NCBI GenBank assembly: GCA_951406725.2
Contig: OX597822.1
Location: forward strand, 17,484,001-17,548,000
DNA length: 64,000 bases
Direction: 5' to 3'
Source of the DNA: Octopus vulgaris
Taxonomy: Eukaryota
The number at the start of each line of letters is the position of its first letter. The first letter of the stretch is position 1. Below the pieces are notes generated by a model. That model had not been told where the DNA came from and made no database searches. It saw only the letters and a list, made by a program, of their open reading frames with translations. Made by a program: the position numbers and the translations under genes. Of the stretch, positions 43,753-62,021 are shown one piece after another.

Positions 43753-44159
43753 ACAAGTATGACCTGTTTTGACTGCCAAACTGAGGCAAGTAAACTTACA
43801 TGCCTATATCAGAGCCACAACAAAATGGCTGTTAAAAGGACAGCACTCATGTCTAGGAGATTAATAATGAAACATTGCAACTCCACAGCAATTGCGGCTC
43901 CATATGTATACATATAAATAATTCTCTATTTATATATTTACATGAATATCAGTTAATGAATATTATATTTTCAAATGGCTTTTAGCAAAATATGATCTTA
44001 CATGGCATATTTACAAGTACTTGAAACATAGTTCATAGCACAATCGTAATTTCATATCAAAATAAACAAATTTCAAAGAGATCTAAATTAGTATAACTCC
44101 ATCATATAGCTAAGGATTTTAAAAGGAACACATCATTTTTCATAGTTGGCAAAATGATT

Positions 44160-44259
44160 NNNNNNNNNNNNNNNNNNNNNNNNNNNNNNNNNNNNNNNNN
44201 NNNNNNNNNNNNNNNNNNNNNNNNNNNNNNNNNNNNNNNNNNNNNNNNNNNNNNNNNNN
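44160..44259. other. Assembly gap (100 N)
   Basis: Run of N. Confidence 1.
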
Positions 44260-46610
44260 ACAACTTCATTTATATCTGGAATTGTATCAACAGACTTGCA
44301 AGTGTGTATAGTGCCGGGAAGAGAATGCATTAGCTGTTGATTAATTTTGTTAACAGCGACGTTTTTTGGAGCTAATATTGCTCTTTCACACAGCCAATTG
44401 TGATTTTGGTAGTTTTGTGTCAAGTTGGGAAAGACTTTGTTTTTGAGGTCATCTACAGAATTAACAACAGAGGAAAATGACCACACTTCTATTTGTCCTG
44501 CAGCATCGAGAGGCATCTTGCCTTCACCAAGTGTCAAAATGTCCTGTGCAAACTTTGTGGACATTTTATCGCCATGTAGCTGAGCTCTCATGTTAGTGGT
44601 GAGACTAAAGATTGTAACATGATGCCACAGGGTAGAGGACTTTAGGCATGCTTGGACTTCATCTGCTCTAGTGCCTTTCGGAATGACAGGAAGAGTTTGC
44701 CTGAAATCACCTGACAACAGAAGCGTTACACCTCCCATTGGAGCCTGACAGTCTCGAATGTCTTTCAGGGCTCTATCTAATGCTTCCAAAGCTCCCTTGT
44801 GAGCCATAGTGCACTCATCCCAGACAATTAGAAGATACATTTTAAGTACTTGTCCCTGATCTGAGCTTTTGTTGATGTTGCATGAAGGCATTTCGGATGC
44901 TGCTAAATTGAGAGGGAGTTTAAAAGTCGAGTGTACTGTCCTGCCACCAGGTAACAAAGTAGCTGCAATGCCAGAGGAGGCTACAGCTACTGCAATGTCC
45001 TGATGCTGCCTAACTTCTGCAAGGAGAAGCTTTGTAATAAATGTTTTTCCTGTCCCTCCAGGAGCATCGAGGAAGAAGATTTGTCCCTCGCGTTGGCGTA
45101 CACTGTTAAGAATAGTTCTGTAGGCCTGCAGCTGGTCCGGAAGTAATTTAGGCTCATTTTCAACAATGCACTTTGAAAGCGCTTGAGTGTCGTAGGTAGT
45201 TTCATGAATGACAGCAGTGGGAAGGCTATTTGACCCTGACCTGAATGCTTGTGGCAGGCCATACGTCAACAATTCATTTCCACCCAGTTTAGCAATTCTG
45301 TCTTCAATGTCAATGAGTATTTTGTTATAGATTTCATTGCTGATACCCTCCATGTCAGGATAGAGCAGTTGAGCTTGGCGCTGAAAGTCTTCAGCCAGGT
45401 TGTCTCTATATTTGAGCCATAGAGTGGCCGGATCACACAGTTCGCATGCGTGTAGTAATACTGCAAATAGTGCCCTGAGACTTTTAGGTGATTGTGATAA
45501 AGCAGCCTCTCCTAAAGTTGCATCCCATTGTGCACCATCTTCTAACAGACCTTGTCAATAGCAGGCTTCTCTGTATGTTGTGCAGACATGTCCATGAACA
45601 GTTTTTAGGGCCTGGAAAGATGTTGGCCCTCTGACCTCATGCAGTAGTAGATGAAGGTAGAAGCACTCTTGTTAAGTGGGATGCACTGTGTATACTCGTG
45701 CAAGGCAAGTGTGAAACTTAATGCCAGGGTATCCATGAACATTTTGATCTGCTTTCCGTGGGGCCCATTTTTTTCCATTCCAAGTGTAGTACGATGGAAT
45801 CTGTGGATGTGGATACAGCAAGTGTGCTATCCCTTGGTTCCTCTGCCAACAGAGAAGCATTAGCATCGGTGAAGTACACTCTTTGACCATTTTCCAGGTG
45901 CACTGCAAGCTGTTGAATGGCGGGGTGTCGTTGGTGAATTGGAAAGCCAAAGATGCGCCAGAAAGCCTCGTTGCTACTTATGTACCATCCCACCTGATAA
46001 TGCATCACCTCATCCTGGCAGTATTCTTGTTGAAGTCCAAACATTGCAGCGTCAGAACCCTTGTTTACATATTTGCAAACGTACTTGATGGATTTAACAG
46101 AGTTGCAAAACTCAATGTTGATGTGGGCATTGAAAGTCTTTGACAGGAGTGGGCAGTATGGAACAATCATTCTATTATCAATAGCGTGCTGTCCGATAGT
46201 TACTGTGAAACCTCTGTCTTCTGGTTTTCTGCGTCTGTATGATGGACACCCATCAGCACCTGTCTGAGTTTCTTGTAGGAACCTCCTTGGAAATCTTTTT
46301 GAACATATGCTGTCCTTCAAGCAAGGTGTGTTTATGTTGAATCCACGCCCACATGGACCATGTACCATGTTTGCTTTAACTATTTCCTATAGTTCTTTGC
46401 CTAAAGCTGGATCAGGAAGCTCTGCAGAGATTATCTTAACGAAGTCATTGGAATTGATCTTCGCTGAGAGCCAAAGCAGGATATGAGCATGTGGAAGGCC
46501 CCTTTTTTGCCACTCGATTGTGTACATGTCACATTGTATGGGCCCAAAGACTTGCCCTTTTTGTATGAGCTCCATGAGAGAGATTAACTTCAGATGGAAA
46601 ACTCAGGCGT
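44260..46610 (-). pseudogene. Helitron RepHel (HUH endonuclease + PIF1/SF1 helicase), disrupted
   Basis: Rep motifs IEWQKRGLPHAHILLW, MVHGPCG and IKYVCKYVNKG; linker FYLHLLL..VRGPTSF..EACY*QGLL; helicase motifs FFLDAPGGTGKTF, VASSGIAATLLPGGRTVHS, IVWDECTM, SGDFRQTLPV and RAILAPKN. The helicase frame is open from 45353 to the gap; the Rep part has stops and frameshifts. Confidence 0.95.
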
Positions 46611-56772: not shown

Positions 56773-58284
56773 TAGTAAGAAAAAACTTGTAATTGGTAGT
56801 GTATGATGATTCTTTGCTATAATGTACAAAGATTAATTAATTAAAATTTTTACATGAATACTTTCTTTGTAAATATTCCTAAAATATAACTACACCTGAA
56901 ATATTTGACTATATCTTTTACTGAGACTAATGTCTGAACACTAATCTGATATTTGATTATTACTAGCAAGTTGTACAGTGCCCTTGAGCAAAGAACTTAA
57001 TTTACTGTTGTTCTACTCCATTCAATTGTGATGAGTACCAGATGGATGCTGGTGCAGCCATCTTCCTTACCAGATGCTACATCCTGGACATTCTTTTCAG
57101 ATGAGGGTTAAGGAGTCACATGGGTATTTGTCTGTTGGCACATAAAACAATGAGTGGAATCCTGGTACTTTACCAAGCCATATTAACTCAGAATTGGTGG
57201 CTAGCTGCACTTGTTGATATGCATTAAAGTTAATTTCAATTGAAAGAAAACAAAAAAGGAATAAGCTGTTGGCAAAATATTAAACTAAATAAAACAAAAT
57301 AAAACAGAAATAAGTAGATAAACTTGTGTAATACATGTATACATGTATCTGTATTTATGTCTGTATTAAAAGTTTCAAAGTTTGCCATGACTAAAAGGAA
57401 ATTACTCTTAACGCAAACAATAATGTATTTATTGGCATATGTGTAGATTTATCAGTCATTATGCTAGTGAAGAGTGTGTGTGTGTGTGTGTGCATGCATG
57501 TGTGCACATGCTGGTACAAGTGCATGCAGGCACACAGCTAAAAGCTAAACATTTAGCAGAAATCCATAATATTGTGATGATTAAAAAAGGGAAATATAGT
57601 TCAAATGTTAACCTAATATTTAAGTTCAAATTATGCAACAGAAGCAGCTCAGTAACATAAACATTATTAATACCACATACTAAACATATATGTGTTGTTC
57701 AAGTACCAAGAGCTGCAGTTTTTCCTCCTAGAAAAATCCTGAAAATCCTTTCGAAGACATGTAGTGTTGAAAAACATAATATACTTCAAAGCTAGGCAAA
57801 ATGAAATCACCCCAAAGTGAGGTGCACAATAGAAGGAAAACAAATGACATACAAGTAGTATAAGAATTAACACTGGTAAGTGATGAGCAAGGCATTGAAA
57901 GGAACAAGAATGCATGTGGATTTTATGAAATAAATCATTTTCCCATTATTAATAAATTCAACCATTCAAATAATTATTATTTCATTTTTAAAAAGTGGTG
58001 GCTGTAATTTCCATGATGAGTTTATTTTCAAACATATTGCCTAAAAATATCCTTGATATACACTACCGTCGGAAATTAATTAGCACCCTTGATTTGCTCT
58101 TCACTCAAGGTATGTGCTGTCACCTAGTGGCCATATCTCGAACTATTGCTTTGTTGCGAGTTCACTGTTGCGCAGAACGATGACGTAACTTTGTTTGCAG
58201 AGCGGTTTGAGAGTCTACAGCCTAATGATGTTGACATAGCAGTGCAACAACAACTTGGAGTGCGGATGCAGACAAATCTTCCTT

Positions 58285-58860
58285 TCATCATCATCATTAT
58301 CATCATCATCATCATCATCGTTTAACGTCCGTTTTCCGCGCTAGCACGGGTTGGACGGTTTCGACCGGGGTCTGGGGAGCCAGGGGCTGCCCCAGGCTCC
58401 AGTCTGGTCTGGCAGTGTTTCTACAGCTGGACGCCCTTCCTAACGCCAACCACTCCGCGAGTGTAGTGGGTGCTTTTTACGTGCCACCTGCACAGGTGCC
58501 AGAGGGGTCTGGCATCGGCCACGGTCAGTTGGTGCTTTTTATGTGCCACCTGCACAGAAGCCAGTCGGGGCGGTGCTGGCATCGGCCACGTTCGGATGGT
58601 GCTTTTTATGTGGGGGGAGGGTGCAGAAATATAGGGGAGCACCAGTGAGGAGGGGTGTTCGGAGAAACGATGACAGGTTCTAGACAAGTAGAACGTAGGA
58701 TATCACGAGAGGGGTAATGCATGGTGAAATAGCGTATTGAAGAGGGGGGTTCGAAGAGTAGACACCTATAATGGTGGTGGGAGAAGCGACATCCGGTATA
58801 GATGGAGCAAAAATATAGAGATATCCGGTATTGGTGGTGGGGGTGGGCAAGGGCGGGTGC
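58285..58860 (-). mobile_element. Young RTE-type 3' tail (plus probable pyrimidine-rich 3'UTR) nested in the Tc1 left arm
   Basis: (CAT)n followed by CGTTTAACGTCCGTTTTCC...CAGCTGGACGCCCTTCCTAACGCCAACCAC and three GGTGCTTTTTAYGTG subrepeats. It is the same family as the 34130-35008 and 40330-40646 copies but with CpGs intact. The boundary beyond ~58612 is uncertain. Confidence 0.8.
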
Positions 58861-58865
58861 ACCGG

Positions 58866-59571
58866 GAATATGCGACGGTTGAACTTGACGGGCTGGCTTA
58901 AAAATGCTCTTAGCAATGGAAGGGGGGAAAGGAAGAGGGGGGGAGGGCAGACAACGTAAAAGAGGGAGAGAGAGAGAGAAGGGAATAGTGGAACCCCGCG
59001 AAAATCGGCTGCCATTGAAAAACCCCTGTATGGAGAAACTTAAATATAAATATCTATTCTGTATTTAGCAAGACACAAAGCCGGAAACCGATGGTCAACA
59101 ATAACTAATAAATTATACAGAATATGCAATACGAGGCGAAACTGAAAATAATAATAATAATAATACTAATAAACAAATTGTCGACTGGGGGTCAAAGGGA
59201 TAATACTAATACTAATAATAATAATAATAAACAGCTTAACCACTAGAGATCAGACAAATTTGCATGAGAATATTACTGGTACAGATTACGGGATGAATTA
59301 GATTAGAAAGATTTTCTTATCTTGGGAACATTTCGTTTTTCGGCCTGACACGGCGAATATGCGAAGGTTGAACTTGACGGGCTGGCTTAAAAATGCTCTT
59401 AGCAATGGAAGGGGGAAAGGAAGAGGGGGGGCAGACAACGTAAAAGAGGGAGAGAGAGAGAGAAGGGAATAGTGGAACCCCGCGAAAATCGGCCGCCATT
59501 GAAAAACCCCTGTGTGGAGAAACTTAAATATAAATATCTATTCTGTATTTAGCGAGACACGAAGCCGGAAA
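58866..59571. repeat. Two ~220-bp direct repeats (58866-59087 and 59355-59571) with a 267-bp spacer
   Basis: Both run GAATATGCGA.GGTTGAACTTGACGGGCTGG...GACAC.AAGCCGGAAA, with only a few substitutions and G-run indels. Confidence 0.95.
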
Positions 59572-59722
59572 TTATACAGATATAGGTAGCGCCTCGCAAG
59601 GACCAAAATCACACCATACTAAGTTTTCTCATCGCGTAAGACGTTTTGAACAGCTCGTAGGTTAATTGATTTGTGTATTTGCAAGATTTTTTTTCCTCAC
59701 AAATTCTCCTACACTCTGCTTC

Positions 59723-59739
59723 GTGACGTCACTTCCGGT
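59723..59739 (+). promoter_or_regulatory. Overlapping CRE-ETS promoter motif upstream of the transposase
   Basis: GTGACGTCACTTCCGGT contains a palindromic CRE (TGACGTCA) overlapping an ETS core (rc CCGGAAGT), ~30 bp upstream of a splice donor. Confidence 0.7.
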
Positions 59740-59770
59740 TCACAAAACTTTCTGTTATACATCAAATAAG

Positions 59771-59897
59771 GTGAGAAATTCTGCTTTCTTTCTTTTTTGT
59801 TTAATGAATAATAACTCATAGCAGTTTTGTTATAGCATAACATTATTCAAATGAATAGTTTTAATGAAAATAACTGGTTTTTATCGTTCATTCCTAG
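59771..59897 (+). other. Putative 127-bp 5'UTR intron of the transposase transcript
   Basis: Donor AAG|GTGAGA, AT-rich body, and acceptor TTTTTTATCGTTCATTCCTAG directly abutting the ATG at 59898. Confidence 0.65.
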
Positions 59898-60917
59898 ATG
59901 GGCCCAAGACCTCGCATGACCTTGGAGAGATGGTACGAGGCTCTCTCGTGGTGTGGGAAGCTGTCGGAGGCAGCAATAGCCAGAAAATTTGGTGTAGCCA
60001 GGCGCACAATTCGGTGCTTATTTAAGAAATACGAGGAAACCGGATCAGCAGCTGACAAAAAGGGTAGGGGACGGAAGAGGCTGACGACCCAGCAGGAGGA
60101 CCGGATGCTGATCCGAAAGTCACTGAACAACCGAAGGGCAACGAGCCGGCAACTGGCGGAGGAGATGCAAAAGGTGACAGGGAAGCAGTTGTCTACAACC
60201 ACCGTCAAGACCAGATTACTGGAAGCTGGTCTAAAATCCTGTAGGGCCGCCCGTAAGCCGCTCCTTACAGCCCAAAACCGGAAGAGGCAGCTGCTCTGGG
60301 CCCGTGCCCACAAGACATGGACCATGCAGCAGTGGCGGACAGTGATGTTCACTGACGAGTCACGATTCAGTCTCGTCAGTGACAAGCCTGTCCATGTGCG
60401 ACGCCGCAGGGGTGAGAGCTTCAACAAAGACTGCATTGCTCCCACCATGAAGCATGGTGGGGGTGGTCTGATGGTGTGGGGGGCATTCAGCTACAGTGGT
60501 GTTGGGCGGCTCTATGCCATCGAAGGCAACATCAACGCAGCAAAGTACGTTGAGATAGTACGGAATGCTGCCCTACCCTCTGCGGGATACCTCTTTGGTG
60601 GCGAGGAGTACGTGCTCCAGCAGGACAACGCGTCTCCCCACACAGCCAAGCTCACAACCGGTTTCTTCAAGGACCATGGGGTGACGGTCATGGACTGGCC
60701 TGGCCAGTCACCTGACCTGAACCCTATTGAGAACCTCTGGAGTCGATTGGGTAGGGATTTGAATGTGCAGCAATACAGGAACCGACACGAGCTGTTTGGG
60801 GCACTTCTTGCTGCATGGAGGGCCATCCCTGCACAGTACCTGCAGGCACTCATAGACAGCATGCCGGCCCGCATAGCAGCTGTCATTGCTGCCAAAGGAG
60901 GAGCAACAAGATATTGA
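59898..60917 (+). CDS. Intact Tc1-like transposase, 339 aa (paired-like HTH + DD34E catalytic domain)
   Basis: HTH region (AAIARKFGVARRTI), GRKRLTT (GRPR-like), RKPLL, VMFTDESRF (D), GGGGLMVWGAF, LQQDNASPH (D), WPGQSPDLNPIENLW (E, with 34 residues between it and the second D) and C-terminal AKGGATRY. No stops; AATAAA at 60967-60972. Confidence 0.96.
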   Translation: MGPRPRMTLERWYEALSWCGKLSEAAIARKFGVARRTIRCLFKKYEETGSAADKKGRGRKRLTTQQEDRMLIRKSLNNRRATSRQLAEEMQKVTGKQLSTTTVKTRLLEAGLKSCRAARKPLLTAQNRKRQLLWARAHKTWTMQQWRTVMFTDESRFSLVSDKPVHVRRRRGESFNKDCIAPTMKHGGGGLMVWGAFSYSGVGRLYAIEGNINAAKYVEIVRNAALPSAGYLFGGEEYVLQQDNASPHTAKLTTGFFKDHGVTVMDWPGQSPDLNPIENLWSRLGRDLNVQQYRNRHELFGALLAAWRAIPAQYLQALIDSMPARIAAVIAAKGGATRY

Positions 60918-61139
60918 CTAAATTTCACGATTAATAACAATTATGTGGTATGCTGGGATATGTTTTAATAAATTTTTGATTAAAAACGAGTTCGTTTCTG
61001 ATAATAAGTTAATTAAATTAAGAAAATGTAAGAAAATGTAGAAATTTGAGAAGTGCTAATTAATTTCTGACGCAAGTGTACATGTATGTGTATCTGTGTG
61101 AGTGTTTAAGTATGAGCATGTGAATATGTATATATTTGC

Positions 61140-61357
61140 ATGTCTTTGTCTTGGTATAACATATTTGATGTAAATGACTGTCATTTATATCCAATATTCC
61201 GTGGAAACATGTCTGGCCATGGGGAAAAATTAACTTACTTAGAAACATGTAAGGGTTGGCAATGGGAAAAACATTCAGCCATAGAAAATCTGCCTCATTA
61301 AACTCTGTCTGACCCAAGCAAGCATGGAAAAGTAGATGTTAAATGACAAAGATGATA
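61140..61357 (+). mobile_element. Old SINE 3' half with RTE-type tail
   Basis: CATGTCTGGCCATGGGG...AGGGTTGGCAA...CAGCCATAGAAAATCTGCC...AGCATGGAAAAGTAGATGTTAAA. Confidence 0.65.
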
Positions 61358-62021
61358 ATTGATCTTTTAATTCATTACATCAAAAAGAATGTTCTTCAGG
61401 TCTCCATCTACTCTGCTTGTTTTTAAATTCCATTCCCTTATGCACACATGCTCACTGTTCTCTCATTAAAGACATTTTTTTTTCTTTGATCATGAACAAA
61501 CACAAAGGAAATTATATGGGCCCATTAAATACCTTTTATCATTGAAGTGGGCAATAACCTATATTAGTGTTGAGAATAAGCAATTCATAAGAAGGTCACT
61601 GGATTCAGTTTGGTCAAGAAATCTTATGTTGTTCAAATGGCAGGAAAGTAAAATGTAGTCCAAAGAGAATGAAGAAACATAAGATTCATGGTATTTTGTT
61701 GTTAATGAAATGTTCAATAAAAATGTATTTAATAGCCACATATTAACATACAGGTAGGTATAGGATCTTACATCTGAAGATAATGTTGAATGTTTAAGTC
61801 ATAGTTAAATGAAGACTAATGAATGTGTTTAATAAAAGCATGAAGGTGAATGAGTAGTATTTTAAACAATACTTGAATGATAAAAACGCTGCATAGCTGT
61901 TGATACAACTAAAGGAAGAATAAATTAAGTCTTTAGCTATCAAAATTATTATTGATTTCATACATAAATATAAATTCCAGATCATTAATCAAAATTAGTT
62001 TAAATTAATTAAAAACATAAC

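Follow-up and report, generated by a model that had tools for sequence, protein, structure and literature searches.

The 64,000-nucleotide stretch of Octopus vulgaris DNA analysed here (the window) carries a Tc1-like element with paired terminal inverted repeats (TIRs), a TA duplication and an open 339-aa DD34E frame, and the question raised by this locus is whether the element is a recent invader that may still be mobile, as the original prediction had it. All three structural features were confirmed. The answer we favour, with a probability of about 0.82, is that the element is an inserted copy of a 1.73-kb DD34E Tc1 family of the octopus, which reached 3.0 kb when a retroposon later landed in it, and that it is now likely immobile and without a working transposase.

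Table 1. Features of the Tc1 locus (positions refer to the window).
Feature	Position	Strand	Remark
Left TA target-site duplication	58059..58060	.	Matches TA at right end
26-bp left TIR of the family's left-end type (CACTAC...)	58061..58086	+	779 exact genome matches with TA
Tc1 5' non-coding part ahead of nested insertion, common to 380-bp MITE	58061..58282	+	
Nested 5'-truncated non-LTR retroposon, antisense to Tc1	58283..59577	-	Also occurs independently on many contigs
Overlapping CRE/ETS 15-mer (exact match), predicted promoter element of the transposase	59724..59738	+	Exact in 23/42 copies
Predicted 5'-UTR intron, 127 nt (AAG|GTGAGA ... TTCCTAG|ATG)	59771..59897	+	
Tc1 transposase ORF, 339 aa, without internal stop	59898..60917	+	11 derived amino-acid changes
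Codon 131, Gln in window, Arg in founder type	60288..60290	+	CpG transition, likely disabling lesion
26-bp right TIR of the family's right-end type (CACTTG...)	61053..61078	-	777 exact genome matches with TA
Right TA target-site duplication	61079..61080	.	Matches TA at left end

The TIRs with their TA flanks are not a product of chance: exact matches to either end together with the TA number in the hundreds genome-wide (Table 1), and reversed controls gave 0. The three mismatches between the two TIRs had been ascribed either to asymmetric ends or to early immobilisation. The former is supported, the other family copies also having CACTAC on the left and CACTTG on the right; immobilising damage was rejected, since two of the three mismatches are shared by the whole family and the remaining position is variable in the left and the right TIR among copies.

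By its triad, motifs, TIRs, TA target and unit length the transposase would belong to the Tc1 (DD34E) family of ITm, Sleeping Beauty being the only named reference compared. The triad is formed by D153, D243 and E278, with 34 residues from the second D to the E. The motifs GRGRKR (at 56), RKPLL (at 119) and SPDLNPIE (at 271, containing E278) are present, some of which we take to be the GRPR-like motif, the KPLL linker and SPDLNPIE of the usual nomenclature, and the Pfam domains HTH_Tnp_Tc3_2 (PF01498, E=9e-18), for the paired-like HTH region at the N-terminus, and DDE_3 (PF13358, E=1.4e-15) both exceeded the curated cut-offs. The 28 copies without the insert have lengths within the usual Tc1 unit size of about 1.3-2 kb. 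The inverted repeat stops after 26 bp, which places the element outside the IR/DR subgroup (Sleeping Beauty type), whose TIRs are long and contain internal direct repeats. Sleeping Beauty (SB100X; PDB 5CR4) was the sole solved relative found (E=4e-46 over residues 116-339). As far as the accessible text of the cited papers goes, it shares the DD34E spacing (triad D153, D244, E279; PMC11626015), the KPLL linker (PMC4820933) and a TA target with ATATATAT-like preference (PMC8934666), and it differs in having IR/DR ends (PMC5224488) where the octopus family has short, slightly asymmetric TIRs. The octopus copy is also natural and decayed, with a predicted 5'-UTR intron, whereas Sleeping Beauty is a reconstructed enzyme.

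The frame is indeed richer in GC and CpG than its surroundings (GC 0.559 and CpG o/e 0.58, with GC3 0.632, vs 0.332 and 0.29 in the whole window). It is uninterrupted as claimed, but the accompanying statement that every other coding transposon remnant in the window is broken could not be upheld in full. Among the remnants, which were inspected via frames of at least 130 aa, a PIF1-helicase (Helitron-like) frame at 44133-45554 on the minus strand is a candidate counterexample; its 473 open codons end at an N gap, and the window by itself gives no ground for counting it as broken.

The unusual 3.0-kb size turned out to reflect a second mobile element inserted into the Tc1. The window copy measures 3,018 bp, whereas all 28 other two-ended copies lack the insert and span 1,690-1,732 bp (the family element being 1,732 bp), which excludes the size as a trait of the whole family. 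The 1.29-kb insert, unique to the window copy among these two-ended copies, has an (ATG)n tail at about 58283-58320 (CAT on the plus strand) and contains a unit of ~485-bp period twice; at its insertion site 7 nt of Tc1 are missing and there is no TSD. Members of its family start in common at the tail and have 5' ends at many different points. Such a short tandem-repeat 3' tail with variable 5' truncation is as expected of an RTE-type non-LTR retroposon, which the insert may be. Its first 279 nt match at 86% the DNA directly behind a frame at another locus (L084) that ends WYGHVLRM...GRGRPRKTW, presumably an RTE C-terminus, where Pfam returned a weak AT-hook alone. No long coding frame was found within the insert (58283-59577), and a search of four 9.9-kb loci for an autonomous parent revealed no RT frame continuous with it. 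The idea that the insert is cargo captured and carried by Tc1 was rejected, the insert occurring in none of the 28 other Tc1 copies and Tc1 sequence at none of 19 insert-family loci.

The family has at least 779 left ends, most of them belonging to 380-bp MITEs. Copies with the ORF number 138 or more, a subset of which was read in the one assembly surveyed. Each of the 42 aligned long copies differs from the majority sequence by 0.94-2.97%, the closest pair being 0.98% apart. One founder type spread into TA sites of TATATA-like context (in the TIR-picked copies the flanks were T in 77/78 and A in 76/78 cases) and gave rise to deletion lineages and to 380-bp and 560-bp MITEs, which now outnumber the coding copies. 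Since the copies are just 1-3% apart, the founder sequence is easily inferred. The idea of a young Tc1 burst from a single founder with a GC-rich ORF, neither domesticated nor ancient, is supported. In the TIR-picked sample (40 places fetched, with L107 dropped as its TIR had been missed and the long copy L012 skipped) 30/39 were 380-bp MITEs; with L012 the counts become 30, 4 and 6 of 40. The 30 MITEs are on average 0.61% from their majority (0.53% at non-CpG sites), and three of them are unmutated, about the Poisson expectation at a mean of 2.3, hence unmutated copies are not overrepresented in this youngest subfamily. The burst would have run roughly 1-4 My ago and is probably over.

The window copy itself differs from the founder type by 17 changes in 1,725 nt (1.0%), 12 of them at CpG. 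Its ORF accounts for 14, namely 11 replacements and 3 silent changes; a neutral simulation gave 9.8 expected replacements (P(<=11)=0.85), and non-CpG singletons across the family yielded an omega of 0.91 (p=0.54 against neutrality). The frame thus decays neutrally. Changes of this kind leave it without a stop codon with a probability of 0.44, and its openness may be chance survival. Open frames were present in 4/42 long copies, 0/20 further copies and 0/5 long copies of the TIR-picked sample, and the other three carry R131W or an 18-residue deletion. The window copy is the least damaged coding copy among those examined. In the tree it sits on a terminal branch of 0.0095 with neither sister nor daughter, its nearest relative among the 42 long copies is 1.77% away, and a sequence pattern combining two of its private changes has a single match genome-wide. 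Alignment, tree and pattern search thus revealed no daughter among the copies examined, nor were the near-identical copies at other loci that mark an active transposon seen among the 42. Since its insertion the window copy has drifted, mostly by CpG transitions.

At the protein level the likely disabling change is R131Q: the homologues have Arg at this site in 113/114 cases and Gln in 0. The DNA-binding region bears five more changes, including R66Q at a site that is Arg in 87/113 homologues. Judged by conservation, R131Q, R66Q and the other four likely cripple the protein. Full-text search of the Sleeping Beauty literature and term look-ups in Sleeping Beauty papers retrieved no mutant data for the R131 equivalent. 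P246S was considered as a lethal change, a candidacy weakened by the aligned Sleeping Beauty P247S, which keeps 73% activity according to the accessible part of PMC8934666.

The window copy retains its triad, its two TIRs and the promoter-like motif undamaged, the insert lying upstream of that motif. The motif, an ETS-CRE 15-mer located 160 nt before the ATG, has 93 exact matches in the genome, 83 of them in this Tc1 family. The predicted intron next to it has a GC content of 0.25 and encloses three upstream ATGs; across the 42 copies its donor is exact in 28 and its acceptor with ATG in 37. The accessible text of PMC3464117 describes the composite ETS-CRE motif, bound by GABPa and CREB, in mammalian gene promoters. 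The likeness lies in the exact 15-mer adjoining a predicted first exon-intron junction; the difference is that it stands here in an octopus transposon, its promoter role being predicted from sequence. None of the listed sequencing runs is recorded as RNA; those that we guess to be RNA contain about half of the queried words, which are not attributable to the window copy and speak neither for nor against its expression. With at least 83 exact motifs scattered genome-wide, the family is a possible source of new promoters. In the mechanism we propose, this promoter and the short 5'-UTR intron would have served transcription of the founder transposase, which would bind the 26-bp ends and cut and paste full-length copies and, in trans, MITEs, until the burst ended with the decay of the coding copies.

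Occupancy of the locus was followed in contigs of other sequencing runs. The left flank continues into the TIR in runs X1, X2 and X15, and the right TIR into its flank in X1 and X15; the left junction in X15 is the sole joint that passes a bridging rule of 31 letters, the assembly may derive from X2, and X1 and X15 share flank variants. None of the 15 joints listed, beyond which lie 230 more, is an empty site, in contigs that drop rare variants. For that reason the finding that the private alleles of the window copy are mostly invisible in them is uninformative. Family sequence in organism D (run X14) was dismissed as a sign of transfer, flank cover being absent. The filled site, the missing daughters, the neutral decay, the loss of a near-invariant Arg and the lack of excess unmutated MITEs together argue against continuing mobility.

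Whether horizontal transfer brought the founder into the octopus lineage a few My ago, as opposed to its revival from an older resident lineage, is a question independent of the present activity of the window copy, and we lean slightly towards transfer. A single founder with near-star radiation, a founder-type ORF of GC 0.57 and GC3 0.64 within a window of GC 0.33, and an empty gap in the listed homologues between those at 86-97% identity, which without exception bear the label O. vulgaris, and the rest at 64% or less are in its favour. The best 120 + 120 rows of annotated proteins held no other named cephalopod, and the annotated proteins listed included no non-octopus relative above 50% (near-length) or 64% (fragments). 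Against transfer stands that no donor-like sequence was found. The protein collection searched covers annotated proteins, for which genomes are commonly repeat-masked, and older resident relatives may be missed by a genome search in which the best 119 of 21,907 candidates were scored.

It is unlikely that the window copy is a weak live source of transposase, perhaps the last in the genome, transcribed from the ETS-CRE motif and moving MITEs in trans. Such a source, if real, would be relevant where transposons are claimed to be active in octopus tissues. Its least damaged frame, intact triad, TIRs, motif and predicted splice signals, the tolerated P246S equivalent and the youth of the MITEs speak for it; R131Q with the five changes in the DNA-binding region, the MITE spectrum and the lack of daughters speak against. 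The window copy may nevertheless have been sound while MITEs moved, as its non-CpG divergence from the founder (5 in 1,567; 0.32%) is below the MITE mean. Still harder to credit is the combined reading of a horizontally acquired Tc1 with a mammal-type ETS-CRE housekeeping promoter (about 9/10 of the genome's exact motif copies) that survives at this locus as one weakly active source moving hundreds of octopus MITEs. Ongoing domestication, with the frame kept open by the host for its own function, is very improbable: the frame is open although the majority of copies have lost theirs, three runs bearing three different organism labels show an occupied site and the promoter-like motif is intact, but a domesticated gene should be single-copy, stripped of TIRs and under purifying selection, and this one belongs to a family of at least 138 ORF-bearing copies and has both TIRs with TA flanks, no deficit of replacements and an openness readily expected by chance.

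The reading of a decayed, immobile family copy fits the Tc1/mariner life cycle of burst, deletion derivatives (MITEs) and vertical inactivation. Short non-autonomous copies and deletion lineages outnumber the coding ones here too, with neutral decay after insertion, and the family is a clean small example of that cycle; it differs in a detail, two fetched MITEs having right-type TIRs at both ends. Literature searches on octopus Tc1 transposases and O. vulgaris mariner elements returned no account of this family. For O. vulgaris, 73 Tc1-Mariner families with 1,553 insertions at <=2% divergence have been reported (Bonar et al. 2026, PMC13282606); the present family falls within that divergence definition and is likely among the 73, and in the accessible parts of the paper and its supplement the families are not described individually, nor are the state of their ORFs or tests of activity given. 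The use of the element as a host-native transgenesis tool, also proposed originally, is less needed, since stable transgenic cuttlefish have already been obtained with Sleeping Beauty and Minos, according to the accessible part of a preprint (bioRxiv 10.64898/2026.09.23.753964).

The repeat, domain and composition checks bore out the paired TIRs, the TA duplication and the uninterrupted DD34E frame, richer in GC and CpG than its surroundings, described in the original prediction. The ends are inverted repeats of 26 bp that mismatch at three positions. The transposase ORF is open throughout its 339 residues, contains the Pfam domains HTH_Tnp_Tc3_2 and DDE_3 (both scoring over their own cut-offs), aligns with Sleeping Beauty SB100X at E=4e-46 and carries the triad D153, D243 and E278. 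Its GC content is 0.559 vs. 0.332 in the window, and its CpG o/e is 0.58 vs. 0.29. The TIR asymmetry is a family trait, as had been offered as an alternative explanation of the mismatches: the left end read CACTAC and the right end CACTTG in all other copies whose ends were legible, bar two with an altered terminal base, and the third mismatch site varied among copies at both ends. The 3.0-kb size did not hold as a trait of the element, since the 28 other loci with both ends measured 1,690-1,732 bp and the extra 1.29 kb is a nested repeat. At 29 other loci, element position 1518 follows almost directly on the first 225 nt. The right flank of the Tc1 is itself a high-copy repeat, judged by depth in the run contigs.

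Features of the studied Tc1 copy and neighboring sequences (window coordinates unless a locus is named)
Feature	Position	Strand	Remark
Tc1 left end	58059		TA-CACTACCGTCGGAAATT...
Nested insert	58283-59577	antisense	replaces 7 nt of Tc1; target duplication absent
CRE/ETS overlapping motif	59724-59738	+	TGACGTCACTTCCGG, exact; between insert and ATG
Predicted 5'-UTR intron	59771-59897	+	donor 59770/59771, acceptor immediately before transposase ATG
Transposase ORF	59898-60917	+	
Tc1 right end	61080		...GACGCAAGTG-TA, matching left end
High-copy repeat	61150-61460		right flank of Tc1
Helitron-like remnant	44133-46386	-	
Unrelated LINE frame	L084:3393-5732	-	780 codons, endonuclease and RT domains

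The nested insert looks like a 5'-truncated non-LTR retroposon in antisense, because many matches of its family (40 scored of 7,358 first-look candidates) begin at the (CAT)n tail and stop at differing points, and because this is a separate repeat family with Tc1 sequence at 0 of 19 loci. Its tail end matches DNA just behind a reading frame in genome locus L084; the C-terminus of that frame is presumably RTE-like by its motif, and a Pfam search of it was uninformative. Against the majority sequence of six close copies, the insert differs by 0.61%. Having been hit by it, the Tc1 copy must have stayed put long enough to be struck. The retroposon family (L032-L050, L081-L084) is non-coding and has a very high-copy 3' part of ~300 bp preceded by ~485-bp tandem units, about three in the longest copies, in which no RT frame was found; its usual landing sites are (TA)n runs.

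A search of the 2.8-Gb genome for exact TA+TIR patterns located 779 left ends and 777 right ends, against 0 for the controls. One 20-mer from the ORF, chosen free of CpG, was present 138 times, and the insertion flanks were TATATA-like. Among 39 places on contigs C1 and C2 selected through their left TIR (one known long copy and one further place left out), 380-bp MITEs accounted for 30, 560-bp MITEs for four and long copies for five. Both MITE types are internal-deletion derivatives; the shorter, in which founder 1-327 is fused to 1689-1732, accounts for some three quarters of the family ends (L085-L122, C1 and C2). The long copies sort into lineages by common deletions, the biggest sharing a 22-nt frameshift (14/30 rows), and therefore broken copies were mobilised in trans. 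Two 380-bp MITEs (L125, L126) have a right-type TIR at each end and hence perfect TIRs, through conversion or as a small sublineage. At L127 (G000:C2:131912200-131913400) two family pieces, each apparently short of ~50 nt internally, lie back to back with outward-facing left ends ~150 bp apart. The deletion derivative L151 (G000:C4:17302800-17303900) matches the family majority at 99.0% identity across 910 nt, which places it with the least diverged of the long pieces examined.

Forty-two long copies were aligned (the studied copy, 28 of L002-L030 and 13 of L052-L080), leaving out duplicates and loci without a readable end. Because they were selected by likeness to the studied copy, intact ones are favored; distances to their majority sequence range from 0.94 to 2.97%. 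This spread speaks for the young family that had been proposed, but not for continued mobility: the closest pair is 0.98% apart and a 39-mer carrying two private changes of the studied copy occurs once in the genome. The nearest relative of this copy differs by 1.77%, and in a star-like tree, with bootstrap not fully settled, it forms a solitary branch of 0.0095. MITEs lie 0.61% from their own majority, a distance slightly lowered by exact-TIR picking, and 3 of 30 are unmutated, near the Poisson expectation. At 0.0036 changes per site per My, as used in PMC13282606, the rough age of the studied copy is ~2.7 My from all sites or 0.9 My from non-CpG sites, and that of the MITEs and the nested insert ~1.7 My; a rate of 2.4e-9 per generation (PMC13669787) gives somewhat greater, also rough, ages. 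Judged from these comparisons, the Tc1 family is real, young and most likely spent, and the studied copy most likely a well-preserved fossil bearing a nested retroposon.

The claim of an intact, potentially active transposase stood in part: the studied copy is less damaged than any other coding copy examined, but it carries R131Q at a near-invariant Arg. Relative to the founder type there are three silent changes and the replacements R12W, R19C, L31F, Q39R, R66Q, R131Q, V143M, R174S, V208I, P246S and V326I. Neutral simulation with the same numbers of CpG and other changes predicted 9.8 replacements and P(no stop)=0.44, so selection is not needed for the open frame. Position 131 lies in the helix that follows the KPLL linker; 113/114 homologues have Arg there, and we infer that it would be essential; the Sleeping Beauty literature searched yielded no mutant data for it. 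SB P247S, the equivalent of P246S, is reported to retain 73% activity (PMC8934666). Frames were open in 4/42 copies, the other three having, along with further changes, R131W or a deletion of 18 residues; 0/20 further copies and 0/5 long TIR-picked copies were open, and a protein search of the genome (119 candidates scored) returned the same four.

Transcription and splicing of the transposase are predictions. An overlapping CRE/ETS motif, of a kind reported to bind GABPa and CREB in mammalian promoters (PMC3464117), was first spotted by eye; composition predicts 2e-6 occurrences. The insert probably spared this putative promoter, given the position of the motif. The MITEs lack it. The predicted intron is AT-rich, spans 127 bases and includes three upstream ATGs; its signals are kept in most copies. 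Genome-wide, the exact motif matched 93 times (control, 2); 79 matches coincide with listed family places (matched by hand) and four of the remaining 14 are family copies, which makes 83 in the family. The ten outside the family stand in CpG-containing contexts and may be host promoters. CpG loss is uneven among copies (3 to 21 hits), which would fit the location of a copy within a methylated gene; methylation in octopus is reported to fall on gene bodies, not transposons (PMC9476566).

About half of the queried words were present in 20 listed runs (four organisms, nine studies). The left flank runs unbroken into the TIR in contigs of runs X1, X2 and X15 (25, 25 and 37 letters inside), and the right end into its flank in X1 and X15, starting 19 letters inside; the 31-letter junction rule is satisfied by the X15 left junction only. 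X2 may be the source of the assembly, and X1 and X15 have flank variants in common. No empty-site joint appeared among the 15 joints listed, a further 230 being unlisted. Altogether, this suggests that the insertion is common or fixed.

The single founder, the high GC3 and the gap between octopus copies and all others fit horizontal transfer, which we favor slightly as the way the founder arrived. The closest proteins are fragments of 86-97% identity, all labelled Octopus vulgaris; non-octopus relatives among the proteins listed reach at most 50% near full length, or 64% for one fragment. The protein search found no donor, and older resident relatives may have escaped it. The literature searched on octopus Tc1/mariner transposons yielded no description of this family; PMC13282606 counts 73 Tc1-Mariner families in O. 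vulgaris, which contribute 1,553 insertions diverged by less than 2%. Transgenic cuttlefish have already been obtained with Sleeping Beauty and Minos (bioRxiv 10.64898/2026.09.23.753964). Public O. vulgaris gene models P0123 and P0248-P0252 are fragments of the Tc1 transposase, some misnamed N-acetyltransferase 6, and protein P0025, a transposase part fused to a PF00858 (ASC channel) part, is likely a mis-annotation. In the Helitron-like remnant of the window, a frame for a PIF1 helicase stays open over 473 codons until an N gap, and there is a separate upstream frame.
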